Shown: positions 7,217 through 41,021, counted from the stretch's first letter. The stretch: 64,000 bases of DNA from Alphaproteobacteria bacterium (GCA_024280895.1 JAJRPI010000056.1:29314-93313); one strand, 5' to 3'. Made by a program: numbers and translations. Notes: generated by a model from the sequence alone, not told the origin.

Positions 7217-7270
7217 TTTTGGTTCTCTGCCTGAGCTTTGCGGGTGTGATTTGGTGGGCGGCCCTAACCC

Positions 7271-8581: not shown

Positions 8582-8723
8582 TATACGTACTTTCTGAAAC
8601 AATACTTAGTACAAGATGCACGTCCTAGTCTAAAGAGGAAGTGGTCTAACCGCTGTTAGCATCCCCCAACTACCATACTCTGACTAAAGATGAAATATAT
8701 TTTGGGAGAATTTGTCCTAACGC

Positions 8724-8855: not shown

Positions 8856-8868
8856 ATTGCCGATGGTC

Positions 8869-9130
8869 CGCGCGGTGCGTTACGCGCCTTTTGCGAGGTT
8901 TTGCCGTGTTGAGGGTTATCAGTGAGGCGCTAACGGCACCCTACTTGCTAAATGCTGCAAGAGCTAGGGGGAGGTTGTTACCTCAGCACCCTATGTCATC
9001 CCCGCGCCCCATGTCATTCCTGCGCAGGCAGGGATCCATACTCCCTTGCCCGTCAATTGAGAGAGCAGACTATCAATTGTTAAATCTGTGGTTATGGACC
9101 CCAGCCTTCGCTGGGGTGACACTGATTTTT
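8869..9130. repeat. Cluster of REP hairpins (GTAGGGTG-type 76-bp element plus GTCATCCCCGCG..GGGATCC and CCCCAGCCTTCGCTGGGG stem-loops)
   Basis: cggtgcgttacgcgcc...ggcgctaacggcaccctac. Also gtcattcctgcgcaggcagggatcc and accccagccttcgctggggt. The same hairpin types recur at 39600-40122. Confidence 0.8.
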
Positions 9131-9179
9131 TGTGCTGCTGTTGGTTCGGGTTTGCAAAACCTACGACATGTCCCAACCC

Positions 9180-9310
9180 AATCGGTGCGTTACGCTTCGC
9201 TAACGTCACCCTACAGGCTCCCAATAAAATACAAAACCGTAGGGTGTGTTAGCGCGTTTCATGGGCGACCATACAGGCGCAAATTTATCAAAGCGCGTAA
9301 CGCACCGATT
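9180..9310. repeat. 131-bp nested-palindrome REP/MITE-like element, copy 2
   Basis: Perfect 16-nt terminal inverted repeats aatcggtgcgttacgc (9180-9195) and gcgtaacgcaccgatt (9295-9310). Near-identical to copy 1 over most of its length. Confidence 0.85.
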
Positions 9311-9370
9311 ATTGCCGATAGTCCGTTACGGTGCAATAAATTGCACCCTACAGGCCCGGCACCCCATACA

Positions 9371-23731: not shown

Positions 23732-23758
23732 CATATTGTCTGGTGCGCGGCGCTGAAT

Positions 23759-23929
23759 TAATCGCCTGCGCGGCGGGCGGAAAAGGGCGTCTTTGGTTGC
23801 GCTACCGCTTCGCTATTTCAGCGCGGTCCCTTTCTTCTCCATTTTGTGGGAGTTGTATTGGGGGCCGCAACACATCCCCTAAAGATGGGTTCCAAGGGCT
23901 CGCCCTTGGTGCTGTCCGCATAGGACGCC
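23759..23929. repeat. Composite REP-like element, left copy, flanking the nas cluster
   Basis: The end modules aatcgcctgcgcggcgggcggaaaagggc (23759-23787) and gggttccaagggctcgcccttggtgctgtccgcataggacgcc (23887-23929) recur inverted at 34782-34810 and 34528-34570. Confidence 0.85.
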
Positions 23930-23972
23930 TGGCCCCGCAGCGGGATGGTGGGCGGCAAGCGCATTCCTCACC

Positions 23973-25676
23973 TCACCTGAGCAATTGCAGCAAATTCAGC
24001 AATAGCAAAATTAGCGCTGTGATTTTCCAAAATGATACCGGGTTGCGCTGCAGCAGGGGTTGGCTGGCCACTTCTAGACTAGCCGGGTTTGGCTTTTCCA
24101 GATCAGTTAAAAATTGTGACATTAGCGAATAACGCTTGCTCTGCTGCCTGGCAACCGCTTTGCCAAGCGCCCATGAGACATGGCGCGGGATGTTATTATT
24201 GTGCTCATGGGCTGGTGTCAGGGGCAGTTTTGCCACATCTTTCTTGCTCGCAAAGCCTTTGCCATAGGGGTGCTTGCCCGTCAGCATTTCATAGGTGATG
24301 ACCCCAAGGGAATAGAGGTCTGACCCGCTGGTTGGTTTTTGGCCCAATAGATATTCTGGTGCGCTATAGTCCCTTGTTCCCAGCAATTCGGGGAGTTTGT
24401 GGGCACCCTCGACTTCTTGCAGGCCGGCGACGCGCGTAGAGCCAAAATCGATGATTTTAACTGTGCCATGCTGGTCGATGAGGATATTGTCGGGTTTTAA
24501 ATCCTGATGGATCATTTCCTTGCGATGAAAAGCCCGTAACCCCATGGCGATCTGGCTGACAATTTCGCGCACTTCAACGATGCCGGGTTGCGGGTGGTCA
24601 TGTATCCATTGTGTGAGGGTCTGGCCTTCTACATAATCCAGAACCGTATAGAGGAATTTGCGTGATCGCCCCTTGTGGCGCACCTTCAAGACATGGGGGC
24701 TGTCAATTTGCGAACCGATCCATTCTTCGCGGGTGAATAATTCTATATAGGCGGGATCGTCTTCGAAATTGACGGACGGTGTTTTGAGCACCACGCGCTC
24801 ATTTGTTTTGACGTCCACCGCCAGATATACCTGTGACCGTGACGATAGATAAAGATCGCGCTCAATGCGAAAGCCGTCCATTACCATGCCGGGCTCGAGT
24901 TCAGGGGGGAAGGGGCGATCGGTCAGTTTTTGCAGATGAGCTTCTTCCGAGAGGGTGCCTGGATCATCGATGCGCACGATCTGACATGACAGATTGTCAC
25001 CACTGCCAGCTTCATGGGCAGCGTCAGTAAGTGCCTTGGCAGCCGTCTCCAGATTGTCATGCTCAAGAACAAGTTTGCGGATCTCACCATCGCGCAAAAA
25101 GTCATGCACGCCATCAGTGGAAAACAGCAAGATGTCCCCAGCCTGCAAAGGCCTGGAGTGATAATCGACTTCCAGTGCCGGGTCGATGCCAAAGGCTCGC
25201 GAGAGCATGTCGCGTCCACGCGATAAATGCACGCGGTGATCTCTGGTTAATTGGCGCAATGTGCGGCCGCGCAACAGATAGATGCGGCTGTCACCGGCAT
25301 GGAAAATATGGGCCATGGCCCCCTTGAGCACGAGCCCTGAAAAGGTTGTGACCATGGCGCGGTCAGAGGTGTATTGCGCCTGACCTTGCGAATAGAGCCA
25401 GCGATTGACCGCCGTCAGGACGCGGCTGACAGATGTTTTGACGGTCCAGCTTTCATGGGTGCAGTAATAGTCCATGAGAAAGGATTTGACGAGGGTTTCG
25501 GAGGCTTCCTTGCCAGCTTCAGAGGTGCTCATGCCATCGGCAATGGCCATGGCAATCCCTTTGCTTTCGAGCAGGGCGCGGTCTGGCACGATGATGCCAT
25601 AGCTGTCATCATTGCGCTCTTTGCGACCCTTCGTAGAATGAAGGCCAATGGTGATTTTAGGGCCGTTTGTCATCAA
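23973..25676 (-). CDS. Bifunctional PP2C-type phosphatase / Ser-Thr protein kinase with a C-terminal TM helix
   Basis: N-terminal PP2C motifs (RNDDSYGI, AIADGMS, DGV). Kinase motifs (VVLKTP, HQDLKPDNILI, DFGSTR, APE). C-terminal WKITALILLLLNLLQLL. Confidence 0.85.
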   Translation of the reverse strand: MMTNGPKITIGLHSTKGRKERNDDSYGIIVPDRALLESKGIAMAIADGMSTSEAGKEASETLVKSFLMDYYCTHESWTVKTSVSRVLTAVNRWLYSQGQAQYTSDRAMVTTFSGLVLKGAMAHIFHAGDSRIYLLRGRTLRQLTRDHRVHLSRGRDMLSRAFGIDPALEVDYHSRPLQAGDILLFSTDGVHDFLRDGEIRKLVLEHDNLETAAKALTDAAHEAGSGDNLSCQIVRIDDPGTLSEEAHLQKLTDRPFPPELEPGMVMDGFRIERDLYLSSRSQVYLAVDVKTNERVVLKTPSVNFEDDPAYIELFTREEWIGSQIDSPHVLKVRHKGRSRKFLYTVLDYVEGQTLTQWIHDHPQPGIVEVREIVSQIAMGLRAFHRKEMIHQDLKPDNILIDQHGTVKIIDFGSTRVAGLQEVEGAHKLPELLGTRDYSAPEYLLGQKPTSGSDLYSLGVITYEMLTGKHPYGKGFASKKDVAKLPLTPAHEHNNNIPRHVSWALGKAVARQQSKRYSLMSQFLTDLEKPNPASLEVASQPLLQRNPVSFWKITALILLLLNLLQLLR

Positions 25677-25689
25677 CTACCATTTCTCT

Positions 25690-27171
25690 TTAACTAACAT
25701 CAATCATCTCGACCGTGCCATCGGGCAGCACCTCTGCCATTTGACCACTTGGTTCATCAAGAAAGAACTGCACTGCAAGTAGTGTGACAATGGCCGCCCC
25801 GGCAATGGTCAAAAAGAATATTTTAGGAGCGACAAATGACAAAACGGTCAAGAAGATAACACCGCCGACATTGCCATAGGCCCCAACCATGCCAGCGATC
25901 TGGCCTGTCATGCGTCGCCGGATCAAGGGCACCATGCCAAATATTGCCCCCGAGCCAGCCTGACCCAGAAACGAGCATATCATGGTAATGCCTACAACCA
26001 GAGGCAGCCAAAAGGCGCTGGTGACCTGTGAGAGCACAAGATAGCCTACCACCATCCCCGCCAGCAGTACCGACAAGGTTTTTTTGCGCCCGAAGTGATC
26101 GCTGACCAGACCGCCGCCGGGGCGCGCGATCAAATTGGTAAACGCGAAGGCGGAGGCCAGTAGACCCGCTGTGATCAAGTCCAGCTCGAACACATCGGTA
26201 TAATAGAGCGGCAGCATGGAAACCACAGCCAGTTCTGATCCAAATGTCACCATATAGGCAAGATCAAGCACGGCCACCTGTTTGAAGGAATAACGCTCGA
26301 TTGCAGGCACGCTGTTTGCGAATATATGGCCGTTTATTTTATATATCTGCGCGATTTGCAGGCCATAGAGCGCCAGTAAAAGCGCATAGATTGCGTAGGT
26401 TGCACCAATGCCCAGCAGGTTCATATTGGCGGGGGATAATTTCCACGCCAGAACAGCCAGTGCCAGAAAAATCGGAGCCTGCATGAGGCAGGATAAGAAA
26501 AAATCGCCGGGACTGGAGATCTCCATCGCACCAACTTTTTTGGGTTTGAAATAGGTCGAGCCCTTTGGGGTATCGGTGACCGAGAAAAAATAGATGACCC
26601 CATAGATAAGCGCAATGAGGCCGGTTATGGCCACTGCATAGCGCCAGCCATCATCGCCGCCAATCCACAGGGCGATCATCGGCAGGCTGATGGCAGCCCC
26701 AGCTGAGCCAAAATTGCCCCAGCCGCCGTAAATCCCTTGCGCGAGGCCGGTTTGTTTGGCGGGAAACCACTCGGAGATCATGCGGATGCCAATGACAAAG
26801 CCAGCGCCAGCAAAGCCCAGTAAAAAGCGGGTCAGCGCCAGCGTCTGGAAATCCTTGGCCAGAGCAAACATGAAGCATAAAAAGCTGGAGATAATCAGCA
26901 GCGAGGAGAAGGTGTTTCTGGGGCCGAACCGGTCTACCAGCATGCCAATGATCACGCGGGCGGGGATGGTCAGTGCCAGATTGAGGATCAGCAGGGTTTT
27001 TACTTCTTGTGAGGACAGGCCAAGGGTCTCGCGGATCGAGCCGAGCAATGGCGCCATGTTGAACCAGACCAAAAAGCTGATAAAAAAGGCCATCCAGGTG
27101 TAATGCAGTATTTGAATATTGGGCCGCTTGAGCGCAAGCAGATTGAGGCTTTGAGCGGTTTGTTGTGACAT
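25690..27171 (-). CDS. narK: MFS nitrate/nitrite transporter (NNP family, NarK/NasA/NrtP type)
   Basis: 493 aa, about 12 TM helices. NNP-like Gly-rich motifs (GFAGAGFVIG, GGWGNFG, VGAYGNVGG). Sits in a nas context. Confidence 0.88.
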   Translation of the reverse strand: MSQQTAQSLNLLALKRPNIQILHYTWMAFFISFLVWFNMAPLLGSIRETLGLSSQEVKTLLILNLALTIPARVIIGMLVDRFGPRNTFSSLLIISSFLCFMFALAKDFQTLALTRFLLGFAGAGFVIGIRMISEWFPAKQTGLAQGIYGGWGNFGSAGAAISLPMIALWIGGDDGWRYAVAITGLIALIYGVIYFFSVTDTPKGSTYFKPKKVGAMEISSPGDFFLSCLMQAPIFLALAVLAWKLSPANMNLLGIGATYAIYALLLALYGLQIAQIYKINGHIFANSVPAIERYSFKQVAVLDLAYMVTFGSELAVVSMLPLYYTDVFELDLITAGLLASAFAFTNLIARPGGGLVSDHFGRKKTLSVLLAGMVVGYLVLSQVTSAFWLPLVVGITMICSFLGQAGSGAIFGMVPLIRRRMTGQIAGMVGAYGNVGGVIFLTVLSFVAPKIFFLTIAGAAIVTLLAVQFFLDEPSGQMAEVLPDGTVEMIDVS

Positions 27172-27230
27172 TAATCGTTTCCTTGGGTTGCAAAGAGGCT
27201 ATTCGCAAATGGTTAACTCAGACATGTTTC

Positions 27231-27246
27231 AGCAAAGCCCGTGCCA
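27231..27246 (-). promoter_or_regulatory. Sigma-54 (-24/-12) promoter for narK and the kinase gene
   Basis: The minus strand reads TGGCACgggctTTGCT, a perfect fit to TGGCAC-N5-TTGCW. It lies about 60 nt upstream of the narK ATG. Confidence 0.75.
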
Positions 27247-27515
27247 TTTCGCATATAAAATAGCAAGCCATTGATATTGCGTGAAAAATAAAGAATGGTG
27301 CCGTGCCGAGTGAGGGGGTGCCTCCCTTTTTCCTGCTCAACCAGTCGGCAAAAGATTAAAAAATAGGCACGCATGCTAGGTGATTAAATTACAGGCATAA
27401 TTTATATTAATATGCTTGAATATTAGGCCGGGAAACTTTTATATGAGGACGGTTGAAATGCTGTAAAACAAATAAAAATAAGTAAAAACAAATAGATATG
27501 AGTGATCATTTGTTC

Positions 27516-27531
27516 TGGCATGATCGTTGCA
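27516..27531 (+). promoter_or_regulatory. Sigma-54 (-24/-12) promoter for nirBD-nasA
   Basis: TGGCATgatcgTTGCA with GG-N10-GC spacing. It lies about 135 nt upstream of the nirB ATG. Confidence 0.7.
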
Positions 27532-27561
27532 AATTCATTAACGAACAGGTTTAAGACCGAT

Positions 27562-27591
27562 GCCTTGCTGAGTGCCAAGGTCAATTTTTTA
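27562..27591 (+). terminator. Candidate leader attenuator hairpin plus T-run in the nirB 5' leader
   Basis: gCCTTGctgagtgcCAAGGt followed by caaTTTTTTa. The stem is only 5-6 bp, so this is weak. Confidence 0.25.
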
Positions 27592-27666
27592 TCGTTGAAA
27601 CAGGAGCTGCGGCAGGTCTCGATAAGAGGCCGGTGGGGTCTGAAACAGCCACATGAAGGGCAAGAA

Positions 27667-30111
27667 ATGGCAAGAGAAAAGCTAGTTGTGATTGGCAATG
27701 GAATGGCAGGGATGCGCTGCGTCGAGGAGTTGCTGGAACGCGCCCGCGATCACTATGACATCACGGTGTTTGGCGATGAGCCCTATGGTAATTACAACCG
27801 CATTTTACTGTCACCGGTGCTGGCAGGCGAAAAAACCATTGATGAAATCATGCTCAATGATGAAGCCTGGTATGCTGAAAATGACATTACGCTCATTCAT
27901 GGGACCGGTAAGCGCGTTGAAGAAATCCGCCGCGACCGCAAAGTTGTGATCACGCAAGATGGCCTTGAACAGCCCTATGATCGCTTGTTGATCGCCACGG
28001 GCTCCAAGCCGTTCATGCTGCCTTTGCCGGGTGCTGATCTTGACGGGGTCATCGCCTTTCGCGACATCAAGGATGTGGACACCATGTTGGCGGCCGCTCA
28101 AACCTATAAGAGCGCCGTTGTCATTGGCGGGGGTCTGCTGGGCCTTGAAGCGGCCAATGGCCTGATGAAAAACGGCATGAGCGTTACCGTTATTCATCTG
28201 CTTGACAGCTTGATGGAGATGCAACTGGATGATGCTGCCGCCAGCATGCTTAAAGCCTCGCTCATAGAGCGCGGCCTCAAATTCGAGATGAAAGCCAGCA
28301 CCAAAGAGCTGGTCGGTACGTCACGCGTTGAAAAAGTTGTGCTGGATAATGGCAGTGAAATCGACGCTGACCTCGTTGTCATGGCGGTGGGTATTCGCCC
28401 CAATATCGAGCTGGCGCAAAAGGCCGGTATCCATTGTGAGCGCGGCATTGTTGTCGATGACACCATGCTGACTTTTGATCCAGCCGTTCATGCGATTGGC
28501 GAGTGTGCCCAGCATCGCGGTATTGCCTATGGTCTGGTGGCGCCTTTGTTCGAGCAAGCCAAGGTTTGTGCTAATCATCTGGCGCAAAAAGCGTTTGCCT
28601 CTTACAAGGGGTCGACCACTTCAACCAAGCTTAAAGTCACCGGAATTGATCTGTTTTCCGCCGGAGATTTCAAAGGCGGTGATGATTGCGAAGAGATTGT
28701 GCTGGAAGATAAAAAAGCAGGTATCTATAAAAAGATTGTGCTTGAAAATGACAAGGTCAAGGGCGCCGTTCTTTATGGCGACACCATCGATGGGGCCTGG
28801 TATTTCCAGCTAATGCGCGAGAAGTCTGACGTCTCGCAAATGCGCCGCTCGCTGATGTTTGGGCAAAGTCATGTGGGCGATAGTGGCACCGGCGGCATGG
28901 ATGTTATGAGCATGTCCGATGACACAGAAGTGTGTGGTTGTAACGGCGTTAGCAAGGGCGATATTACCTACGCCATTTCCAGTAAGGGATTGTTTACGCT
29001 CGATGATGTTCGGTCTCATACCAAGGCGTCTTCGTCGTGCGGCACCTGCACCGGGCTGGTTGAGCAGCTTTTGATGGCGACGCTGGGTTCTGACTATTCA
29101 GCTTCTCCCAGCGAGAAAGCCATGTGCAAATGCACGGATCATTCTCATGACCGGGTGCGTCGTGCTATTGTAGACAATCAGATCAAAACCATTCCAGAGG
29201 TTATGAAATTCCTCGATTGGTCAACGCCTGATGGCTGCGCATCTTGTCGCCCCGCACTCAACTATTATCTGCTTTGTGCCTGGCCGAGCGATTATGTGGA
29301 CGATGGCCAGTCCAGATTTATCAATGAGCGCGCTCATGGCAATATCCAAAAAGATGGCAGTTATTCTGTGGTGCCGCGCATGTTTGGCGGGCTTTGCACC
29401 GCTGATGATTTGCGGACCATTGCGGATGTTTCTGATAAATATGGCGTACCTGAAATGAAGGTGACGGGCGGGCAACGCATTGATTTGTTTGGCGTTAAAA
29501 AAGAAGACCTCCCCGATATGTGGGCCGATTTATCGGACGCTGGATTTGTATCGGGGCATGCTTATGGCAAGGCCATGCGTACTTGTAAAACCTGTGCTGG
29601 TGCCAACTGGTGCCGCTTTGGTACGCAGGATAGTACAGGACTTGGCGTCAAGATCGAAGAGCTTTCCTGGGGCTCGTGGATGCCGCACAAGTTCAAATTT
29701 GCCGTATCGGGTTGCCCGCGCAATTGCGCCGAGGCGACCATCAAGGACTTTGGCGTGGTGTGCGTCGATAGTGGCTATGAGCTGCATGTCGGCGGCAATG
29801 GCGGCATCAAGGTGCGCGTGACGGACTTTTTGACCAAGGTTGAAACGGAAGAAGATGTGCTGGAATGGGCAGGGGCCTTTTGTCAGTATTACCGCGAAGA
29901 GGCGCATTATCTGGAGCGTACGGCTCCCTGGATTGAACGCATTGGTCTGGCTCCTATCAAGGAAAAGCTGGAAGATGACAAGATCCGTCTTGAGCTTTAT
30001 GAGCGCTTTATCATCTCCCAGAAATCTGCGCAAATCGACCCGTGGAAAGAGCGCTCCAAGGGGGAGCTGACCAAAGAATTTTTACCGATCAAGGATCTGG
30101 TGGCAGGATGA
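27667..30111 (+). CDS. nirB: NAD(P)H-dependent assimilatory nitrite reductase large subunit
   Basis: Start MAREKLVVIGNGMAGMRCVEELL. BFD-like 2Fe-2S (CGCNG...CGTCTG). Siroheme/4Fe-4S site (CKTCAGANWCRFG ... SGCPRNCAE). Confidence 0.95.
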   Translation: MAREKLVVIGNGMAGMRCVEELLERARDHYDITVFGDEPYGNYNRILLSPVLAGEKTIDEIMLNDEAWYAENDITLIHGTGKRVEEIRRDRKVVITQDGLEQPYDRLLIATGSKPFMLPLPGADLDGVIAFRDIKDVDTMLAAAQTYKSAVVIGGGLLGLEAANGLMKNGMSVTVIHLLDSLMEMQLDDAAASMLKASLIERGLKFEMKASTKELVGTSRVEKVVLDNGSEIDADLVVMAVGIRPNIELAQKAGIHCERGIVVDDTMLTFDPAVHAIGECAQHRGIAYGLVAPLFEQAKVCANHLAQKAFASYKGSTTSTKLKVTGIDLFSAGDFKGGDDCEEIVLEDKKAGIYKKIVLENDKVKGAVLYGDTIDGAWYFQLMREKSDVSQMRRSLMFGQSHVGDSGTGGMDVMSMSDDTEVCGCNGVSKGDITYAISSKGLFTLDDVRSHTKASSSCGTCTGLVEQLLMATLGSDYSASPSEKAMCKCTDHSHDRVRRAIVDNQIKTIPEVMKFLDWSTPDGCASCRPALNYYLLCAWPSDYVDDGQSRFINERAHGNIQKDGSYSVVPRMFGGLCTADDLRTIADVSDKYGVPEMKVTGGQRIDLFGVKKEDLPDMWADLSDAGFVSGHAYGKAMRTCKTCAGANWCRFGTQDSTGLGVKIEELSWGSWMPHKFKFAVSGCPRNCAEATIKDFGVVCVDSGYELHVGGNGGIKVRVTDFLTKVETEEDVLEWAGAFCQYYREEAHYLERTAPWIERIGLAPIKEKLEDDKIRLELYERFIISQKSAQIDPWKERSKGELTKEFLPIKDLVAG

Positions 30112-30452
30112 ATAATATGAACAGCAAACATTGGATTGAAATTGGCCCCCTCAAGGACATTGCCGTGAAGGGCGCGCGCATCGTCAAGCATGCGGGCGGT
30201 GATATCGCCATTTTTCGCACCAGTGAAGACGAGGTCTACGCATTGGATAATAAATGCCCGCACAAAGGCGGCCCCTTGTCCGATGGCATCGTGCATGGTT
30301 GCCGCATCACCTGTCCCTTGCATAACTGGGTGCTGGAATTAAAGACCGGCAAGGCTGTCGCTCCCGATGAAGGGGAAGCCAAGACCTGGCCCGTCAAAGT
30401 TGAAGATGGCCTTATTTATCTGGGCACCGAAGATGATGTGGCGTTCGCGTAA
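30108..30452 (+). CDS. nirD: Nitrite reductase small subunit (Rieske-like)
   Basis: ATGA overlap with the nirB stop. CPHKGGPLSDG...CPLHNW. Confidence 0.9.
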   Translation: MNNMNSKHWIEIGPLKDIAVKGARIVKHAGGDIAIFRTSEDEVYALDNKCPHKGGPLSDGIVHGCRITCPLHNWVLELKTGKAVAPDEGEAKTWPVKVEDGLIYLGTEDDVAFA

Positions 30453-30478
30453 GCAGTGGTAAAAAGAGAAAGACACAG

Positions 30479-32683
30479 ATGTTATTTGGACGCGCAAAAA
30501 AGAACCCAGTGAAGATTGCCGACAAGGGGATCGTCGATTGGAAATATGCCACTTGCGGCTATTGCTCCACCGGCTGCTCCATTGAGGTTGGTCTGAACAA
30601 AGAGGGCAAGGCTGTGAGCTCGCGCGGCGTTGGTGGCGCGGATGTCAATCGCGGCAAGCTATGTCTCAAGGGCATTTTTGAACATGAATTATTCGACAGC
30701 GATGGGCGCGGCACCACCCCCATGATGCGCGATCATTATCATGAGGATTTTGCTCCAACGAATTGGGACACGGCACTGGATCGTACCCATGACGAGATCC
30801 GCCGCATTCAGGAAAAATATGGTCGCGACAGCTTCGCCATTATCTCCACCGGTCAGATGCTCACCGAAGAGTTTTACACGCTTGGCAAGCTCACCCGTGG
30901 TCTCATTGGCACCAATAATTATGACGGTAATACAACGCTTTGCATGAGTTCGGCCGTTTCTGGTTACAAGCGCTCCTTTGGCTCTGACGGTCCTCCTGGC
31001 TGTTATGAGGATTTTGAACATACCAATTGCCTCGTTGCATGGGGTTCCAATCTGTCCGAGCAGCATCCAATCATTTACTGGCGTATGAAAGACGCGCAGG
31101 AAAAACGCCCGTTCCCGCTCATTGTCATTGATCCGCGCGTCACCATGCTGGCCCAAAATGCCGATATGCACCTACCCATTACACCCGGCACCGATGTGGT
31201 TCTGCAAAATGCCTTGATGCACGTCATCTTGAAAGAGGGACTGGAGGACCGGCGCTATATCGACGCCAATACCAATGGCATCGCGCAGCTTGAAGCTGAG
31301 GTCGCCAAATATGATCCCGTCACCGCAAGTAAAATCTGCGGTATTGATGAGGACACCATCCAGACGGTGGCACGCCTGTTCGCCAAGGCCGGTGCGGCCA
31401 TGCAGATCTGGACAATGGGCATCAATCAAAGCACGCATGGATCAGATGGCGTGGTGGGCATCAATAATCTGGCGCTGATCACTGGCAATATCGGCAAACC
31501 GGGCGGCACTTCGCTTTCGATCACTGGTCAATGTAACGCAATGGGCACCAGAGAATGGTCGTCCTGCTCGGGATTGCCGGGATATCGGGCTTTGGAAAAT
31601 CCAGAGGACCGCGAGGAGATAGGTAAATTCTGGGGCTGTGATCCAGAGTTCTTTCCCAAAAAGCGCGGGCTTTATCAAACCGATATCTATCCCGCTATCG
31701 AAACCGGCCAGATCAAGGGCCTATGGTTGATCGCCACCAATCCCTTGAGCTCTTTGCCCAATACGGCGCGCATCAGAAAAAGTATGGAGCGACTGGAATT
31801 TTGTGTGGTGCAAGATTGCTATAAGGATACCGAAAGCGCGCAATATGCCCATGTCTATCTGCCAGCTGGTACCTGGGCGGAAAAAGAAGGGGTGATGACC
31901 AATACCGAGCGCCGGGTCAATATCGTCAAACCCATCATGAAGCCCCCCGGGGACGCCAAGCCCGATCTGTGGATTTTTAACCAGATGGCCAAGCGCTTCA
32001 ATCTGGATAAAAAGCTCAGCTTTCCTGAAAAAGCCGCTGATATTTTTCTGGAGATGACCAGGCTTTCCAAGGGGCGGCTGTCCGACATCACTGGTATGAA
32101 CCATGAAATGATCGAGAAAAACCGCGGCGTGCAATGGCCTTATACAGCGGAGCAGGCGGCTTCAGGCGAGGCACCGCCCAAAGGTGGCAAGCGGATCTAT
32201 ACCAAAGATGGAACCTTCAGTTATAAGGACGGCCGCGCCAAGCTGATCCCGCTGCCCTTTATTGATAATAATGAAGTGCCGGATGAAAAATTCCCGTTCT
32301 GGCTTAATACCGGCCGCTTGATCGAGCACTGGCACGGCCGCACCAAGACCGGCAAAGTGGCCGATAATAATAAATATGTGCCTATTCCCTTTATCGAGAT
32401 TAATCCAGATGCGGCTAGAGAGCTTGGCGTCCGGACCGGGGAATATGTGCGGCTGGTGTCGCGTCGTTCTGACGCCATTGTCATGGTCACGCCAACCGGG
32501 CGCGTCCCAAAAAACATGGTGTTCCTGCCATTCCATTTTTTCGATTGCGCCAACCGCTTGACCCTTGGCCTGCTCGACCCTCATTCGCGCCAGCCAGCCT
32601 ATAAGCAATCGGCCATCCGCATCGAGAAATTACCCGATCAGGCTGAGGCGGCAAAAGCCAGCATGGAAATGAGAGAATTTTGA
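30479..32683 (+). CDS. nasA: Assimilatory nitrate reductase-like Mo-bisPGD catalytic subunit (no Tat leader)
   Basis: N-terminal 4Fe-4S ligands CGYCSTGC...LCLKG. Molybdopterin oxidoreductase body. C-terminal FLPFHFFDCANRLTLGLLDPHSRQPAYKQSAIRIEK. No RR signal. Confidence 0.8.
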   Translation: MLFGRAKKNPVKIADKGIVDWKYATCGYCSTGCSIEVGLNKEGKAVSSRGVGGADVNRGKLCLKGIFEHELFDSDGRGTTPMMRDHYHEDFAPTNWDTALDRTHDEIRRIQEKYGRDSFAIISTGQMLTEEFYTLGKLTRGLIGTNNYDGNTTLCMSSAVSGYKRSFGSDGPPGCYEDFEHTNCLVAWGSNLSEQHPIIYWRMKDAQEKRPFPLIVIDPRVTMLAQNADMHLPITPGTDVVLQNALMHVILKEGLEDRRYIDANTNGIAQLEAEVAKYDPVTASKICGIDEDTIQTVARLFAKAGAAMQIWTMGINQSTHGSDGVVGINNLALITGNIGKPGGTSLSITGQCNAMGTREWSSCSGLPGYRALENPEDREEIGKFWGCDPEFFPKKRGLYQTDIYPAIETGQIKGLWLIATNPLSSLPNTARIRKSMERLEFCVVQDCYKDTESAQYAHVYLPAGTWAEKEGVMTNTERRVNIVKPIMKPPGDAKPDLWIFNQMAKRFNLDKKLSFPEKAADIFLEMTRLSKGRLSDITGMNHEMIEKNRGVQWPYTAEQAASGEAPPKGGKRIYTKDGTFSYKDGRAKLIPLPFIDNNEVPDEKFPFWLNTGRLIEHWHGRTKTGKVADNNKYVPIPFIEINPDAARELGVRTGEYVRLVSRRSDAIVMVTPTGRVPKNMVFLPFHFFDCANRLTLGLLDPHSRQPAYKQSAIRIEKLPDQAEAAKASMEMREF

Positions 32684-33858
32684 TGTTTAAAACACGAAGC
32701 GACGAACCAAAATACGCTCATTTATGGGATAAAGAAACCAAGCTTGCCAATATTTATGGCGATACGATCGACCTTGTCGAGGGCAGCGATCTGCCAGCCG
32801 ATCAAAGCCTCAATATTAATGGCGATGGTTCGGTCGGCGACAATCCCAACCGCAACAAGCAACACGGTTTTTATTTCACCGCTGATAATTGCATTGGTTG
32901 CCATGCCTGCGAAGCGGCCTGTTCTGAAAAAAACGACAATCCCTCACATATCGCTTTTCGCTCGGTTGGTTTTGTGGAAAGCGGTAGCTATCCAGATTAC
33001 AACCGCCTCAATATCAGCATGGCTTGCAATCACTGCGATGATCCCGTTTGCCTGAAGGGTTGCCCAACGCGGGCCTACACGAAATTTGCCGAATATGGCG
33101 CGGTGCTGCAAGATCCTGACATTTGTTTTGGCTGCGGCTATTGCACCTGGGTCTGTCCCTATAACGCCCCGCAGCTTGATCCGGTTAAAGGCGAAGTGAG
33201 CAAATGCAATATGTGTGTTGATCGCTTGGAAGTCGGTCTTAAACCAGCTTGCGTTTCCGCTTGCCTTGGTAATGCGCTGGACTTTGGCGTCATCGAGAAT
33301 GTTCCTGAGCGCCGCGAGCAGGCCAAGGTGCAAATTCCCGGGTTTCCTGATCCAGGGATCAGCCATCCCAATATCCGCTTTTCTCTGTCGCGCACGCTGC
33401 AGAGGGTGTTCACCCGTCCCGACAGCGCGCCGCTCAAATATGTACGTGAGGGAGATGGTTTTAATCCTGTGGTCAATGAGGCGGCAGGCGTTGGCGAGCG
33501 CCAATGGAATCTCAAATCTCTGCTCACCAGCCATGAAAATGCGCATATTGTTTTCACGCTCTGCACGCAGGCGGTGATGGGGGCCTTTCTTTTGGTGCTG
33601 CTGGGTGGCTGGCTCGATCAGCCCTTATATACAACGGAGTTGTTTGTGCCTGTGATGGCCGCGCTGGTCGGCCTGTTGGGCTTTGGTCTGGCGGTGCTCA
33701 ATCTGCATCTGGGTAAGCCCATGCGGTTTTATCGCGGTTTCAACAATTGGCGCCTGTCGCCGGTGAGCCGCGAAATCGCCGGTGTGTCGCTGTTTTTTAC
33801 AGCCCTTTCCGGCTATGCCTTTTCGGCCTTCTGGGATCGCAATATCTGGGTATGCTGA
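32683..33858 (+). CDS. DmsB/NrfC-like 4x[4Fe-4S] polyferredoxin fused to about 3 TM helices of a DmsC-like anchor
   Basis: TGATG overlap with nasA. Four Cys clusters (CIGCHACEAAC; CNHCDDPVCLKGCP; CFGCGYCTWVCP; CNMC..ACVSAC). C-terminal helices follow (IVFTLCTQAVMGAFLLVLL, FVPVMAALVGLLGFGLAVL, IAGVSLFFTALSGYAFSAF). Confidence 0.75.
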   Translation: MFKTRSDEPKYAHLWDKETKLANIYGDTIDLVEGSDLPADQSLNINGDGSVGDNPNRNKQHGFYFTADNCIGCHACEAACSEKNDNPSHIAFRSVGFVESGSYPDYNRLNISMACNHCDDPVCLKGCPTRAYTKFAEYGAVLQDPDICFGCGYCTWVCPYNAPQLDPVKGEVSKCNMCVDRLEVGLKPACVSACLGNALDFGVIENVPERREQAKVQIPGFPDPGISHPNIRFSLSRTLQRVFTRPDSAPLKYVREGDGFNPVVNEAAGVGERQWNLKSLLTSHENAHIVFTLCTQAVMGAFLLVLLGGWLDQPLYTTELFVPVMAALVGLLGFGLAVLNLHLGKPMRFYRGFNNWRLSPVSREIAGVSLFFTALSGYAFSAFWDRNIWVC

Positions 33859-34499
33859 GTGCCCATAGCGTTGACCTGCTGATTGTTTTGCCAGGACTGG
33901 GGGCGGTTCTGGGGGCGGTTGTTGGTCTTTATTACATGATCAAACTCTATCTTATTCCAGCGCGGCCTTTCTGGAACCACTGGCAAACAGCCAGCAGTTT
34001 TGTCGGCTCTGCCATCACCCTTGGCATGCTTTTGTTAAGCAGTCTGACGGTTCTGGCTCAAGGGTTTCATATGGAGGTGAGAGCGGTGGCGCTGATATTA
34101 CTCGCCGGGCTAATGCTGGAAGCTATCGGCCTTGCTTTCCATGCACGCACCATGAAGCGGCAAGGCGGCGAAGGGGCGGCGTCGCATTTCGAACAAGTGA
34201 CGCGCTATGGCTTCCCCTATTTGTTACGTAATTTGTTGCTGGGGGGAAGCATTGTCTCCCTTGTCGGTGTCGCCCTATTCGGTTTGCCATTGGGAGGGGC
34301 AGGCATCGCCATTACCTTGCTGCTTGCTCTGTCTATTCTAGCAAGCGCCATTATCGGGCGCGCCCTGTTCTATGTGCTCGTCATTCCAACGACCATGCCG
34401 GGGGGCTTCTTCTGGCGCAATAAGGGCTTTGAGGAGCACGCAATTGAAACGGGTCTGGCTGATAAAATTCACGCCGGAATTGTTACGGGCAAGCATTGA
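33852..34499 (+). CDS. DmsC/YnfH-like membrane anchor, C-terminal portion (about 5 TM)
   Basis: ATGCTGA overlap with the previous gene. Very hydrophobic 215-aa product. It could be a separate coupled gene or the 3' part of one frameshifted gene. Confidence 0.6.
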   Translation: MLSAHSVDLLIVLPGLGAVLGAVVGLYYMIKLYLIPARPFWNHWQTASSFVGSAITLGMLLLSSLTVLAQGFHMEVRAVALILLAGLMLEAIGLAFHARTMKRQGGEGAASHFEQVTRYGFPYLLRNLLLGGSIVSLVGVALFGLPLGGAGIAITLLLALSILASAIIGRALFYVLVIPTTMPGGFFWRNKGFEEHAIETGLADKIHAGIVTGKH

Positions 34500-34527
34500 T
34501 CTAAGTTAATGAATGCGCTCGCCGCGC

Positions 34528-34810
34528 GGCGTCCTGTGCGGACAGCAGCAAGGGCGAGCCCTTGCAACCCTGTTTTGACTCTAAAGTTTGGCTTATGTGT
34601 AGGGTGTCAATAGCGATAGCGTATTGCACCGTTGCAGACTCAAATCGGTGCAATACGCTGCGCTATTGACACCCTACATTTTCGGAAACCTGCTCGTGGA
34701 TACGTAGCGATTTGTTGTTACGAGCTGATACGAACGAGAAAGCCCCTTTCACCCTCTTTAAAATGGGGATGAAAGGGGCTTGCCCTTTTCCGCTCGCCGC
34801 GTAGGCGATT
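34528..34810. repeat. Composite REP-like element, right copy (inverted), flanking the nas cluster
   Basis: 34528-34570 is the reverse complement of 23887-23929 (40/43 identical by my alignment). 34782-34810 is the reverse complement of 23759-23787 (27/29). The interior carries a 78-bp GTAGGGTG-type palindrome (34599-34676). Confidence 0.85.
34730..34781 (-). terminator. Candidate terminator hairpin downstream of fccB (part of the REP composite)
   Basis: Perfect 12-bp stem AAGCCCCTTTCA / TGAAAGGGGCTT (34740-34751 and 34770-34781). The minus strand is followed by TTCTCGTT. Confidence 0.4.
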
Positions 34811-34828
34811 AAATCTTACCTTATCGCA

Positions 34829-36109
34829 TCAAGTACCAAACATGTCTTTGGTGATGGCGTTGTACCAGCCAAAGAACTCTGCATAGGTTTGCTGGCGAAG
34901 CTGATCGCTTTCGCCGACCTTGGAGATCAGTTTGGACGTTGGCTCGATCTTGGTTTTACCAGCTTTATAGGTGGCACCGACCTTGATACCGTCATCAATG
35001 GCAAGGAAGCTCCAGCAGGTATTAGCATATTTGGCCGGGAAGGTCCGCGATCCAAGCAGTACACCGCGCACAGCCATGGCGCATGATTTGGCCTGCGAGT
35101 TGGCGGAGAACCCTGATTTTGGCATGGAAGCCGCAATACTCGTATCGCCGATCACATAGATATTAGGATCAACCGTTGATTGCATGCTGCCGGGTTTGAT
35201 TGGTGCCCATCCCGTTTTGTTGGTGAGGCCGGCATCTTTGGCAATGCGTCCACCGGTCATGGCAGGGATGACGCAACCAGCGTCTGCTTTGAAATTATCG
35301 AGACCGGTTTCGAATGTCATATTATCGGTATCGACGCGTTTTATTCCATCCAGCGATGACAGAGGATTCCATTCGATCATATCGCCATAATGACGTTTCC
35401 AACCGTCTTGGAATAGCGCCATTTTGGAGAATTTATCTTTGGGATCAAGAATGATGATCTTGGCTTTTGGATTGTGATATTTGAAATGATGCGCAATCAT
35501 CGAGACGCGCTCATATGGTCCTGGAGGACAGCGATACGGATTTGGCGGGGTCAGCATGACAAAGGTGCCGCCCTGTTTCATCGTGGTAACGCGGTTCTTG
35601 AGGAATTGTGCCTGCGTACCCGACTTCCAGGCATGCGGGAAAGTTCCAGAGCCAGAGACAGAATAGCCTGGCACGCTGTCATACTTAATATCGATGCCTG
35701 GTGAGACAATCAAGATATCGTAGGGAATGGAAGAGCCGCCACCAAGTACAACTTTTTTGCCGGCGCGATCAATGCTTGTTGCCCAGTCATGAACGACATT
35801 GATGCCGAACTTGGAGGCCAGCTTGTCATAGGAATGACCAATGCTTTCATATTTGCGGAAGCCGCCAATATAGAGATTTGAGAAGAAGCAGGTATAATAG
35901 CGTTTGGTCGGCTCCAGCAGAGTGACCTCTAGCTTGCCTTTGGAATCCTTGGCGAGATAACGCGCAACGGTCGCGCCGCCGGCTCCACCACCGATTACCA
36001 CAACTCTAGGTCTCCCAGCTCCAAACACGGCGCCAGTATTGGCGCTGAGCCCCAAAGTCAGGGCAGCAGCTCCTGTTAGTTTGCCGAATTGCCTTCGGTT
36101 CATTGTCAT
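34829..36109 (-). CDS. fccB: Flavocytochrome c sulfide dehydrogenase, flavoprotein subunit (FccB/SoxF type)
   Basis: Tat leader MTMNRRQFGKLTGAAALTLG. FAD motif VVVIGGGAGGATVARYL. FCSD-like body. Confidence 0.85.
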   Translation of the reverse strand: MTMNRRQFGKLTGAAALTLGLSANTGAVFGAGRPRVVVIGGGAGGATVARYLAKDSKGKLEVTLLEPTKRYYTCFFSNLYIGGFRKYESIGHSYDKLASKFGINVVHDWATSIDRAGKKVVLGGGSSIPYDILIVSPGIDIKYDSVPGYSVSGSGTFPHAWKSGTQAQFLKNRVTTMKQGGTFVMLTPPNPYRCPPGPYERVSMIAHHFKYHNPKAKIIILDPKDKFSKMALFQDGWKRHYGDMIEWNPLSSLDGIKRVDTDNMTFETGLDNFKADAGCVIPAMTGGRIAKDAGLTNKTGWAPIKPGSMQSTVDPNIYVIGDTSIAASMPKSGFSANSQAKSCAMAVRGVLLGSRTFPAKYANTCWSFLAIDDGIKVGATYKAGKTKIEPTSKLISKVGESDQLRQQTYAEFFGWYNAITKDMFGT

Positions 36110-36178
36110 CTCATTACTCCCTGTTTTGCGCCTCAATAGTCCATAGACTATTGATCGTTTTATCTGTTGCCTGTGAGG

Positions 36179-39599: not shown

Positions 39600-40122
39600 G
39601 CCACATCTCGGCACTTCCATTGTCATTCCCGCATCCGCCCTGCGCCATCCCCGCACCCCCATGTTTTATCCCCACGTCTCCATCGTCATCCCCGCGCAGG
39701 CGGGGATCCAAGCGACCATCAACTTGTGCGATACCTGTTACATTGTTGAGGGGGAGCAGTAAGTCGCTCTTACTCCCTCTCCCGGGGGGGCTGGAGTGAG
39801 GGGGATGGATCTCTCGATTGTTTGCGGTCCGCTATACACCACATCCGGCCATAGCAATGATTTGCAAACTTCATATCGTGTCACCCCAGCGCAGGCTGGG
39901 GTCCATAACCCCGGAATTATCAGTTGAAAGCTTATCCTCTCAATTGCAGGTCAAGGGAGTATGGTTCCCGGCCTTCGCCGGGATGACGTTTGTGTGTGGG
40001 GTGGCGTTGGCATTTGTATATCTAGCATCGCTGCAAAGGAAAAAATGTAGGGTGTGTTACGCGCCATTCGCGAAGGCAGGACCAGATTACAAGGCCACAG
40101 CAACGGCGCTAACACACCCTAC
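39600..40122. repeat. REP hairpin cluster ending in a 76-bp GTAGGGTG terminal-inverted-repeat element (40047-40122)
   Basis: gtcatccccgcgcaggcggggatcc, gtcaccccagcgcaggctggggtcc and ttcccggccttcgccgggatgac. Also gtagggtgtgttacgcgcc...ggcgctaacacaccctac. Confidence 0.8.
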
Positions 40123-41021
40123 TTGCTAGTCTTAGAAAGCCGAGAGAATATGATGTTATCAGAAGTACCATGCACAACGATGCGGGTTTTTGTTAGGGTA
40201 GGGGAAGTCTTGTTCAGCCAATCTTGGATCAAAATTGACCGCGCAGAATTGTTCGTATTTGTGTCAATTTTGACTTGATGGCTAGTACCAGGCATTTGGC
40301 GTTCTTCGAATTTTGTATCTTGCTTGAGCGTGTTATTCGAATGACCTGCTATTATGTCAGCAGCCGCCGTAAGAATAGCCGTAGATTCCTTGTATTTCGG
40401 ATCATCTGATGGTGCCAGCTTGATCGCTGGGCTATCCGATGTTTGATAATGCCTTCGAAATGAAGAAACCATAGAAACAATGTCGCGCCGTTGATGTTCT
40501 GTTTCAATAACCTGATCGTGATCCGACCACCATTCAACTTCTGCAGTTGCAGTGGTGCTGATCTCGATGATGCGAGAAAGCACATGAGTAATGCGTGCGG
40601 CGCGTTCGAAATTAGTCGGATTGCTCCAGTCACTCAGAAAAACGCCTTTTTGTTTGAGTGCGATGGCGCTCCCTTTTGTGAAAGTTAATTCTTTTAGGAG
40701 CTTGGAGCGAAAAGAAACTGAAATCAGATTGCCCCGGAGACTGTCACAAGCATCAAGGAAGGCTTGCGTTTTCGTTAAGTTATGTTTCCCGTGAATTTCC
40801 TTAAATGAGGGAGGCTTCCCATAGTTGTTTACTAATTCGTCGAAAGGCTCTCCCTGCTGGATGTAGTCGTCCCAGTCAAATAGTAAGTACCCTAAAGTCC
40901 ACCATTTGGTCCCGTCGTCACCGCTATAGTCAGAACCGACGACTACGCGATCGCACGACAAAGGGGCCAGATCTGCGCCGATAAAGGACTTTGCAAGTAT
41001 ATTACTCCAGGGTTCGTTCAC
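40119..41021 (-). CDS. Hypothetical 300-aa protein, possibly DUF3800-like
   Basis: GTG start overlaps the upstream stop (GTGA). Weak resemblance to DUF3800 landmarks (VVVGSDYSGDDG; FKEIHGKHNL; TAAADIIAGHS). Visibly lower G+C than uvrA. Confidence 0.55.
   Translation of the reverse strand: MNEPWSNILAKSFIGADLAPLSCDRVVVGSDYSGDDGTKWWTLGYLLFDWDDYIQQGEPFDELVNNYGKPPSFKEIHGKHNLTKTQAFLDACDSLRGNLISVSFRSKLLKELTFTKGSAIALKQKGVFLSDWSNPTNFERAARITHVLSRIIEISTTATAEVEWWSDHDQVIETEHQRRDIVSMVSSFRRHYQTSDSPAIKLAPSDDPKYKESTAILTAAADIIAGHSNNTLKQDTKFEERQMPGTSHQVKIDTNTNNSARSILIQDWLNKTSPTLTKTRIVVHGTSDNIIFSRLSKTSK

Follow-up and report, generated by a model that had tools for sequence, protein, structure and literature searches.

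Composite repeats at both ends of a nitrate-assimilation cluster probably belong to a dispersed family of hairpin-forming intergenic doublets

The two composite repeats that bracket the nitrate-assimilation (nas) cluster in the 64-kb stretch of DNA analysed here (the window) are, with high probability, copies of a dispersed and modular intergenic repeat that forms hairpins, is arranged in doublets like those of REPINs and BIMEs, and is independent of the nas genes. Units of the same family follow many unrelated genes, are present or absent at orthologous sites, and covary in their stems. Their mobility is suggested, at the level of sequence, by just this pattern of presence and absence and by their dispersal. 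The family (P and D units) is of a REP-like kind already known, and since it lacks a GTAG head and has no counterpart in Rfam 15, it is probably undescribed. An initial annotation had proposed a mobile or recombination-prone nas cassette, with hairpins of one REP-like family as a fallback, and it is the fallback that turns out to be essentially right.

The cluster consists of six genes, namely those for a PP2C-kinase and a narK-type MFS transporter, nirB, nirD, nasA and a Fer4_11/DmsC-like gene. Eight had been counted before; a frameshift splits the Fer4_11/DmsC-like gene and is the sole reason for its appearance as two ORFs. Znu-zur-M15 lies on one side of the cluster and fccB on the other, and the repeats occupy the two convergent spacers thus formed, M15/kinase (M15 peptidase stop at 23731, kinase stop codon at 23973-23975) and DmsC-like/fccB (last nas ORF ending at 34499, fccB stop codon at 34829). 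Some of the MAGs considered here are labelled in their records as Alphaproteobacteria or Hyphomicrobiaceae, at odds with their nas genes of gammaproteobacterial type.

The inverted composites lie where they had been placed. The proximal arms (23887-23929 and 34528-34570) are complementary at 40 of 43 positions (93%) and the distal arms (23755-23788 and 34782-34815) at 91% over 34 nt, and the distances reported for them hold as well, the left element lying 44 nt from the kinase stop (23973) and the right one 29 nt past the last nas ORF. Allowing up to 3 mismatches, the 64-kb window has no further copy of the 43-nt or the distal module, and none of 100 shuffles produced a match. The compensatory change described for the hairpin hp2 is also real, the outermost stem pair being C-G on the left (CCAAGGG-CGAG-CCCTTGG) and G-C on the right (GCAAGGG-CGAG-CCCTTGC). 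The 43-nt match does not, however, mark the limit of the proximal module, since the unit is longer and has a conserved head, AATGCGCTCGCCGCGCGG, which on the right begins at 34512, 12 nt past the stop of the Fer4/DmsC-like gene. The two elements comprise 170-300 nt of hairpins and nested repeats each, with no ORF inside either (Table 1).

Table 1. Parts of the two composite elements at the borders of the nas cluster (positions in the window).
Feature	Position	Strand	Basis or remark
Left D (distal) unit	23755..23788	+	inverted-repeat arm; starts 24 nt past M15 peptidase stop
39-nt insertion	23789..23827	.	splits second hairpin of left D unit; local alignments
Interrupted left D unit, 3' arm and tail CCCTTTCTTCTCCATTTT	23828..23845	+	counterpart CCCTTTCATCCCCATTTT in right D unit
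Central spacer of left doublet	23846..23886	.	without significant similarity to right interior
Left P (proximal) unit	23887..23972	-	CM R1 23909-23947 (23 bits), 23909-23965 (29 bits)
Right P (proximal) unit	34512..34570	+	CM R1 61.4 bits, E=1e-10
Nested GTAG-type REP doublet (TGTAGGGTGTCAATAGCG ... CGCTATTGACACCCTACA)	34598..34678	.	perfect 18-nt inverted arms; other repeat family
Truncated D-like half GAAAGCCCCTTTCACCC	34733..34759	+	inverted repeat; pairs with adjoining right D unit
Right D (distal) unit	34762..34815	-	reads TTAATCGCCTACGCGGCGAGCGG-AAAAGGGC-AA-GCCCCTTTC-ATCCCCATTTTA

In each element two units are paired in inverted orientation as a doublet, the heads facing out and the tails facing in. 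A P unit reads AAT, hp0 (GCGC-TCGCC-GCGC), hp1 (GTCC-TRYGC-GGAC), AGC, hp2 and an AACCC tail, with CTCGCCG invariant in hp0 and hp2 variable at 7-9 bp; the D unit is a related subtype lacking hp0. The right P unit follows this order, with hp0 at 34515-34527, hp1 (GTCC-TGTGC-GGAC) at 34531-34543 and hp2 at 34548-34565, then the tail AACCC. On the left, from low coordinates, come the tail AACCC, hp2, hp1 (GTCC-TATGC-GGAC) and a diverged head (AATGCGCTTGCC...) that holds a 23-nt insertion and reaches the kinase stop codon; in the orthologue of this unit in L247 the head is intact (loci outside the window are numbered with the prefix L). The left D unit is built of an AAT start, a CGCC-TGCGC-GGCG hairpin, GGCGG and the 5' arm of a second hairpin, AAAAGGGC, and is also found at L003:3155, L132:459, L193 and L247:3296.

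The interiors differ, as had been noted, because of independent nested insertions. The 39-nt insertion on the left resembles this genome's GTAG-type REP family (TGCGCTACCGCTTCGCTA versus TGCGTTACGCTTCGCTA at 9172), and is shared with the orthologous element in L247 and missing in L003 and L193. Beyond it, the alignment of CCCTTTCTTCTCCATTTT with CCCTTTCATCCCCATTTT scores 26, just above the best of 200 shuffles (25), which is marginal alone, and L247 reads CCCTTTCATCCCCATTTT at that position. On the right, the nested GTAG doublet makes up most of the extra length; its GTAG head fits the REP definition of PMC2817692, and its direct-repeat family has further copies at 7263, 8716 and 9172. The region of the D-like half and the D unit (34725-34828) has an RNA fold z-score of -4.5, and the right D unit ends 14 nt short of the fccB stop codon.

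With a covariance model of hp0 and hp1 (R1), 33 units were found across the loci examined. Those outside nas loci follow ispB-like, GHMP-kinase, RimO/MiaB-like, ImuB/DnaE2, UvrD/GlyQ, TPP-enzyme, IscA-like, threonine-dehydratase and DsbA-like genes, and nas genes are present in one of the 21 loci chosen without regard to nas (L062; among the matches listed). For instance, the MAG Dive100_bin10.29 has an orthologous nas cluster (L247) together with copies at imuB/dnaE2 (L023) and uvrD/glyQ (L117); copies with the exact head number at least five on four contigs of the MAG D100SM.bin.2, and occur at no fewer than two loci of Dive100_bin10.29 in addition to the nas left unit in L247. For the size of the family and the range of its hosts these are lower bounds, the matches listed from public collections being mostly chance matches in GC-rich DNA. 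The 18-nt head and the loops are kept exactly at unrelated loci, in organisms whose flanking genes are ~75-87% identical. All copies lie in spacers at gene 3' ends, many between convergent genes, and at most loci the head is -2 to +18 nt from the stop codon. The 64-kb window has four units, all of them at the nas borders, and in the 22-kb loci of relatives each R1 match is inside or adjoins the nas cluster, so the units may be locally enriched at the ends of nas operons.

Intact doublets measure ~125-135 nt (125 nt in L193, 129 nt in L064, 134 nt in L132, about 130 nt at the left in L003), with sizes up to 200 nt in the family, and have no coding capacity. The one at L193:2465-2589, a compact P+D doublet lying where ispB-like and GHMP-kinase genes converge, is the nas-flanking composite minus its interiors, and folds at -52 kcal/mol (z = -2.3). 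Halves are frequently of different types: P+D (window, L193), Q+P (L132:5061-5194, L064), D+Q (L132:459-560) and P with a Q remnant (L002). Some doublets have exact 18-nt terminal inverted repeats (L064 7079-7207, L079 2196-2393, L132 5061-5194). No transposase was found among 20 flanking proteins scanned.

It is extremely unlikely that the composites form the ends of a cassette that is mobile or invertible, with recombination or transposition between them moving or flipping the 10.6-kb nas block. The arms are real, inverted and in the two spacers bounding the cluster, the block has different neighbourhoods in more distant relatives, and in L003 synteny breaks exactly at the right junction, with the proximal unit retained. 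However, L002 has the cluster in the same place and orientation with no left element, its M15/kinase spacer being 2 bp, and L247, at ~87% nucleotide identity to the window cluster, likewise has it with the left element and neither the right P nor the right D unit; both have a Q-type unit, not D, beside fccB. The right P unit has orthologues in L248, L002 and L003 with compensatory stem changes, hp0 in L248 having switched to GACC/GGTC. Units even occur inside the cluster, between narK and the kinase gene, in L002 and L062, and with one side missing in L002 and L247 the idea that the repeats precisely delimit the cluster fails in relatives. Relocated clusters of more distant relatives (L004, L008, L010) have no such units at their borders, the nas segment is inverted in none of the five relatives compared, the elements encode no transposase, and comparison of the filled M15/kinase sites (window, L003, L247) with the empty one in L002 revealed no recognisable target-site duplication. 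Copies at unrelated loci are also at least as close to the arms as the arms are to each other: the left P unit matches the copy at the ispB locus of L193 at 41/43 and the right P unit at 40/43, and each nas D unit is 1 nt from the copy at L132:459 and 2 nt from its partner. Modules at many unrelated intergenic sites, and nas genes in place without one or other repeat, had both been set beforehand as findings against the cassette, and both are what we find. The pair looks inverted for no other reason than that each of the two doublets, being asymmetric, faces nas with its P half, a 1-in-2 outcome.

The suggestion that the hairpin structure is under selection stands for the stems of the family as a whole. 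Across the 33 units 97.2% of cells are paired and 51 are double-change cells, which 0 of 500 shuffles reach, and with partners slid no more than 43% are paired; unit stems are 93-97% paired overall, and the hp2 arms of 31 units come in 20 distinct sequences, forming 218 Watson-Crick and 3 G-T pairs against 13 mismatches. Because the stems are thus Watson-Crick on both strands, the constraint cannot be assigned to RNA, and there is no sense-strand bias, the antisense folding slightly more stably in 21 of 28 units with G-U counts of 50 versus 43. We hold it to be very unlikely that the proximal unit is a nas-specific cis-regulatory RNA that lies in the 3' UTRs of the two divergent nas operons and co-regulates or co-stabilises their transcripts. 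Both operons do end, in mRNA sense, in head-hp1-hp2 right past the stop (window, L003), L002 and L248 have the module at their right end, orthologous copies show covarying stems, and the R1 matches in nas-centred loci are all nas-associated; but the same module also stands behind many unrelated housekeeping genes, L002 lacks it at the left and L247 at the right, and it has no Rfam match (Rfam 15 gave no gathering-level match in the window and, over the elements, sub-threshold matches at chance level only). A similar picture emerges for ordinary, immobile convergent terminators that are alike through shared descent or convergence on GC-rich stems, which we find improbable. These would fit the location of all copies at gene 3' ends, and T-rich runs begin 5-6 nt after the hp2 and D-hairpin stems (for example AACCCTGTTTTG and ATCCCCATTTTA). 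As judged from the bases, however, the run does not come directly after the stem as in intrinsic (Rho-independent) terminators, and a simple scan for the terminator consensus passes over every P and D hairpin; the exactly conserved head and loops at unrelated loci, the presence/absence and subtype swaps at orthologous spacers, and the doublets of mixed unit types, which point to copying, also argue against it.

If the composites are copies of a dispersed repeat, as we prefer, the doublets would settle where genes end and spacers are very short, often in contact with the stop codon, and those flanking nas would have had a history separate from that of the nas genes, with gains, losses, swaps and further interruption by nested repeats. 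The units may be non-autonomous DNA hairpin elements, which would spread through mobilisation in trans or through replacement by gene conversion, and in place they are probably 3'-end hairpins with a putative role in terminating or stabilising transcripts. At the kinase gene here, and at rimO-like and uvrD genes elsewhere, the unit abuts the stop codon or contributes stop or last codons. It is possible, if rather doubtful, that P, D and Q together form an undescribed non-autonomous hairpin family with a three-hairpin end module, the invariant CTCGCCG and no GTAG head, spread by an enzyme other than the GTAG-recognising RAYTs and preferring to abut stop codons, sometimes supplying the stop or last codons itself. 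If so, a real site preference, and not chance, would lie behind the repeated gains, losses and subtype swaps at the ends of both nas operons.

Among known systems, composite transposons and IS-bounded cassettes likewise have inverted repeats on both sides of a coherent gene block, but the repeats here have a transposase neither within them nor nearby, one side is missing in syntenic relatives, and the repeats also occur inside the block elsewhere and at unrelated loci. MITEs resemble the doublets in their size (125-200 nt here) and lack of coding capacity, the dispersed copies, the presence/absence at orthologous sites and the exact 18-nt terminal inverted repeats of some doublets; P+D ends are only loosely inverted, no target-site duplication is seen and no parent IS is known. 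REPs, described with BIMEs from enterobacteria, Pseudomonas and Stenotrophomonas (Nunvar et al. 2010, PMC2817692), are defined by a conserved 5' GT[AG]G head adjoining a palindrome (table in PMC2817692). The P and D units are short imperfect palindromes outside genes, as REPs are, and lack this head of RAYT-associated REPs: neither end has GTAG or GTGG in the 23- and 33-unit alignments, in which units start AATGCGCTCGCC and end AACCC(C). RAYT-associated REPs are further marked by more than 100 copies per genome and by a cognate single-copy RAYT gene, an IS200/IS605-like Y1 transposase, with the repeats on its flanks. REPINs are hairpin-forming REP doublets mobilised by RAYT transposases (Bertels & Rainey 2011, PMC3116915), and differ in having one palindrome of ~20-35 nt where the units here have three successive hairpins in ~60 nt; the halves here are often of unlike subtypes (P+D, P+Q, D+Q), and no RAYT was seen among the 20 flanking proteins scanned. 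They agree in being extragenic, with inverted related units round a short, less conserved spacer, a doublet that can fold as a whole (as in L193), singlets resembling decayed doublets, and common compensatory stem changes. The sequence family is unrelated to that of BIMEs, with the head AATGCGCTCGCCGCGCGG in place of GTAG/GTGG; the likeness lies in the mosaic of several palindromic unit types in alternating orientation with varying inter-unit lengths, in hybrid clusters of two families, here a GTAG REPIN nested in the right element, and in palindromy kept by complementary mutations. REP doublets with hairpins, compensatory changes and mosaic arrangements have been described for REPINs and BIMEs (PMC3116915, PMC2817692).

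The inverted repeats initially placed on either side of the nitrate assimilation (nas) genes are real and lie where they were first located, an inverted-repeat search recovering both the nas-proximal arms (43 nt, 93% complementary) and the distal arms (34 nt, 91% complementary). The Pfam map shows that the M15 peptidase and kinase genes on one side, and the DmsC-like and fccB genes on the other, have convergent ends, and therefore both the LEFT and the RIGHT element fill spacers between convergent ends. Allowing up to 3 mismatches, neither module has a third site in the 64-kb window, and no match arose in 100 shuffles. The two elements are members of a dispersed, modular family of hairpin-forming repeats with a doublet architecture like that of REPINs and BIMEs (known doublet and mosaic palindromic repeats), and at orthologous spacers these repeats turn over by gain, loss and swapping. 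The fallback reading of the initial annotation, hairpins of one REP-like family, was thus essentially correct.

Genes and repeats around the nas cluster, with doublets from other loci (window positions unless a locus is named; gene assignments by Pfam scan)
Feature	Position	Strand	Remark
znuA		(-)	left flank of nas, then znuC, znuB, zur
M15 peptidase	stop 23731	(+)	before LEFT element
LEFT distal arm	23755-23788		pairs with RIGHT distal arm
Insertion in LEFT D hairpin	23789-23827		39 nt
LEFT proximal arm	23887-23929		pairs with RIGHT proximal arm
PP2C-Ser/Thr kinase	23973-25676	(-)	after LEFT element
NarK-type MFS transporter		(-)	beside kinase
10-nt direct repeats	27465-27503		divergent narK/nirB promoter region
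nirB, nirD, nasA, Fer4_11/DmsC-like gene	end 34499	(+)	before RIGHT element
Fer4_11/DmsC-like gene	32680-34499	(+)	3' of nasA; ORFs 32680-33858 and 33747-34499
RIGHT P head	begins 34512		12 nt past stop codon
RIGHT proximal arm	34528-34570
GTAG-type REP doublet	34598-34678		in RIGHT interior, 18-nt perfect arms
Truncated D-like half	34733-34759		in RIGHT interior
RIGHT distal arm	34782-34815
fccB	34829-36136	(-)	after RIGHT element, then cytochrome c
Other GTAG-type REP copies	7263-7319, 8716-8772, 9172-9228; also 8780-8950, 9230-9350, 40045-40125
Third family, inverted pair	9013-9122 / 39878-39987		110 nt
Third family, 39-nt copies	9099, 39966, 52777
Doublet P+D	L193:2465-2589
Doublet	L064:7079-7207
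Doublet Q+P	L132:5061-5194
Doublet D+Q	L132:459-560
Doublet D+C	L003:3155-3281

Comparison with relatives and with other loci reveals the reported 43-nt proximal module to be a portion of a longer unit, the P unit, which runs AAT, a first hairpin (hp0, GCGC-TCGCC-GCGC), GG, a second hairpin (hp1, GTCC-TRYGC-GGAC), AGCR, a third hairpin (hp2, a stem of 7-9 bp whose sequence varies) and the tail AACCC. The distal module belongs to a related subtype called the D unit, with the order AAT, CGCC-TRYGC-GGCG, RGCRG, AAAAGGGC-nn-GCCCCTTTC and then CATCCCCATTTTA. Further subtypes differ from the others mainly in hp2, which is TTGGGGAC..GTCCCCAA in Q, GCAGGGAC..GTCCCTGC in C and CCAGAGGGA..TCCCTCTGG in S. 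Doublets consist of two units with their heads outward, spanning 125-135 nt, and both window elements are expanded P+D doublets. On the left the P head has diverged, carries a 23-nt insertion and reaches the kinase stop codon, and the D hairpin is split by a stretch that resembles the genome's GTAG-type REP family and appears to be a degenerate copy of it; on the right a complete doublet of the same family lies nested between P and D, together with a truncated D-like half. Because these nested insertions differ, the two interiors, already described as dissimilar, are of unequal length and otherwise lack significant similarity. We rejected the idea that they are diverged copies of one another, as the alignment matches the D tail only; they are independent insertions.

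In many cases the head of a unit and the end of the upstream gene overlap (window 23966-23975; L064:7206, L132:5060 and L013:3135 at non-nas loci), and at some loci outside the window the AAT of the unit provides the last two bases of a TAA stop codon. The window kinase ends ...CAG GTG AGG TGA inside GAGGTGAGGAATGCGC, a stretch also found 5' of the right unit of L003, a relative with nas genes.

Conservation of the hairpins is evident across the family. When considering hp0 and hp1 together, 97.7% of cells are paired in a MAFFT alignment of 23 units, with 31 double-change cells and 0 of 500 shuffles as high, and 97.2% in a model-derived alignment of 33 units, with 51 double-change cells, 0 of 500 shuffles as high and at most 43% pairing for slid partners. 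Since the whole-unit MAFFT alignment misregistered hp2, this hairpin was parsed by script and the covariance model, R1, was restricted to hp0 and hp1; the 31 parsed units hold 20 distinct hp2 arm sequences, and of their stem pairs 218 are Watson-Crick, 3 G-T and 13 mismatched. Orthologous units show compensatory changes as well, in the right hp2 (GCAAGGG/CCCTTGC in the window versus GCAGGGA/TCCCTGC in L003) and in the right hp0 (GCGC/GCGC versus GACC/GGTC in L248, despite NasA proteins that are 99% identical), and in the left hp2 (CCAAGGG-CGAG-CCCTTGG in the window versus CCAAGGGA-TGA-TCCCTTGG in L247). The change first noted between the two window elements, where the outermost proximal pair is C-G in the LEFT element and G-C in the RIGHT one, is genuine too. 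Compensatory changes and covarying stems together place a constraint on the hairpin at the family level, and this much of the original argument for selection on structure holds. RNA folds gave no sense-strand bias, the antisense strand giving the slightly more stable fold for 21 of 28 units (G-U counts 50 versus 43), and with no sense-strand advantage we dropped the compensatory change as proof of RNA selection. The constraint could act equally well on DNA hairpins as on RNA. P and D hairpins were not called by a simple terminator scan.

The neat P...P / D...D bracket had suggested that the repeats mark the boundaries of a mobile or invertible nas cassette; the chance that both P halves of two asymmetric doublets face nas is 1 in 2. 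Relatives with nas genes speak against the cassette. L002 (NasA 88%) has flanks identical in order to the window on both sides (znuA-znuCB-zur-M15 / nas / fccB-cytochrome c-401-aa gene), with a 2-bp M15/kinase spacer and no element on the left, and a P unit plus a Q-type remnant on the right. L003 (NasA 87%) carries a compact D+C doublet on the left and a P-type singlet on the right, where its flank shares 0 genes with the window. The left element of L247 (about 87% nucleotide identity), the closest relative with both flanks, is the orthologue of the one in the window and shares its 39-nt nested insertion, and the right side of L247 has no P unit; where the window has its P+D doublet, the nas/fccB spacer of L247 (14038-14992, 955 bp) holds a 219-codon ORF with no Pfam match on record, four tandem copies of TGATCAGGCCCGAATG and a Q-type remnant beside fccB. 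L248 (NasA 99% at the amino acid and 88% at the nucleotide level), whose left junction lies outside the locus, has on the right a P unit of another hp0 subtype and an interior unlike that of the window. Both junctions lie outside the locus in L062 (nas proteins 76-87% identical), which has a P-type unit inside the cluster (L062:692-776), as does L002 (L002:4968-5035), in each case directly after the narK stop and before the kinase, where the window spacer is 13 bp. Three further relatives (L004, L008 and L010; NasA 84-86%) have other neighbours and none of the units on either side.

No relative examined has the nas block inverted. Because relatives keep nas in place without one or other repeat, the bracket is specific to the window genome and is the outcome of independent turnover in two spacers. 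With the same units at unrelated intergenic sites, a mobile or invertible nas cassette is not supported, and annotation and evolutionary readings of the locus should therefore not invoke one. In L008 (Solemya velum symbiont; 4797-7107) the kinase beside nirB is truncated to 227 aa, with a phage-type integrase and a DUF5906/D5_N primase-like gene ahead of it, an arrangement suggesting disruption of the left part of that nas cluster by an integrated element.

Two collection scans gave about two dozen true units, a lower bound. The scan of genome contigs with the 18-nt head yielded at least about 12, about 90% of the matches listed being chance or coding matches in high-GC genomes (Streptomyces, Bradyrhizobium), and the scan of metagenome contigs with the hp1 motif also yielded at least about 12, GGCGTCCTGCGCGGACAGC being frequent in GC-rich coding DNA. 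R1 confirms 33 units across the loci examined. Outside nas loci, copies lie beside genes for ispB-like polyprenyl synthetase, GHMP kinase, RimO/MiaB-like radical-SAM enzymes, ImuB-like and DnaE2-like proteins, UvrD, GlyQ, a TPP enzyme, an IscA-like protein, exonuclease III, threonine dehydratase and DsbA-like proteins; among the loci found by the scans, L062 alone has nas genes. Two of the non-nas loci, L023 and L117, come from the same MAG as L247, and thus a close relative carries copies elsewhere in its genome, at sites unrelated to nas. The left P unit matches the L193 copy at 41 of 43 positions versus 40 of 43 for the right P unit, and each window D unit is 1 change from L132:459 and 2 from the other D unit; by these counts the two nas-flanking copies are not each other's nearest relatives. 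L193 itself, where the upstream gene ends GCATTAG, was considered as a further nas junction and rejected, since it has no similarity to any nas protein and is flanked by the ispB-like and GHMP kinase genes. In nas-centred loci every R1 match is nas-associated; shared ancestry and ascertainment explain part of the association, and there may be a mild preference for nas operon ends.

The family is common to several uncultured marine sulfur-oxidiser-like genomes. Among named proteins, the window NasA is closest to those of gammaproteobacterial sulfur-oxidiser symbionts (Solemya velum symbiont, 84%). The MAGs are labelled Hyphomicrobiaceae bacterium D100SM.bin.2 (L062, JAKIUO010000008.1) and Alphaproteobacteria bacterium Dive100_bin10.29 (L247, L023 and L117, JAJRQA01), labels that fit poorly with nas clusters whose proteins (L062) are 76-87% identical, or whose DNA (L247) is about 87% identical, to those of the window; the record taxonomy or binning looks doubtful.

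Several other features of the window deserve mention. The Fer4_11/DmsC-like gene, which relatives carry as one ORF (607-610 codons), reads as two overlapping ORFs because of a frameshift near the T run GCTGTTTTTT (about 33790-33800, region to 33876). The cause is either a sequencing error in the homopolymer or a true frameshift that makes the gene a pseudogene. Three overlapping 10-nt direct repeats (AAAACAAATA / AAAATAAGTA) stand just 5' of the GTG start (27502) of the longest nirB ORF. The GTAG-type REP family (GTAGGGTG...CACCCTAC, core GCGTTACGCTTCGCTAACG), separate from the P and D units, is present in several spacers, both singly and as doublets, which implies a RAYT-type system (REP-associated transposase) in this genome. 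A third family includes an inverted pair (82% complementary, 30.8 kb apart) and contains GTCATTCCTGCGCAGGCAGGGATCC-type hairpins and TCCCGGCCTTCGCCGGGATGACG motifs.

How the units move can be outlined conditionally. They may be non-autonomous DNA elements that spread through recognition of their end hairpins in trans, or gene conversion may homogenise the copies; the best candidates for sequence-specific recognition sites would be CTCGCCG, which is invariant in hp0, and the hp1 loop TRYGC. No transposase or transposition intermediate was seen at the copies examined, and the empty M15/kinase spacer of L002, set against the filled ones of the window, L003 and L247, shows no recognisable target-site duplication; kinase C-termini differ between species, those of the window, L002 and L003 being unlike. 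In place directly 3' of stop codons, the hairpins probably terminate transcripts or protect mRNA, and REP-type repeats have been proposed to act as 3'-end terminators or mRNA protectors (PMC2817692). The repeat unit turns over faster than the surrounding genes, and families of this sort make useful strain markers, confound both assembly and the analysis of synteny, and are candidates for new transposase-repeat partnerships.

Rfam 15 holds no match to the family, giving only chance matches of the palindromes to miRNA and CRISPR-repeat models, and no exact match to the repeat sequences was found in the literature searched. Unlike REPINs (PMC3116915) and BIMEs or REPs (PMC2817692), the units lack a GT[AG]G head, are 60 nt long with three hairpins and pair up as halves that differ in subtype; no RAYT gene was found. 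Like those systems, they lie outside genes and form inverted doublets around a variable spacer, with a hairpin spanning the whole doublet; unit types are combined in mosaics, some clusters are hybrids with a second repeat family, and stem changes are compensatory. Given the missing head and the lack of a match in Rfam 15 or the literature, we therefore set the family apart from RAYT-type REPs and file it as a REPIN/BIME-like family.
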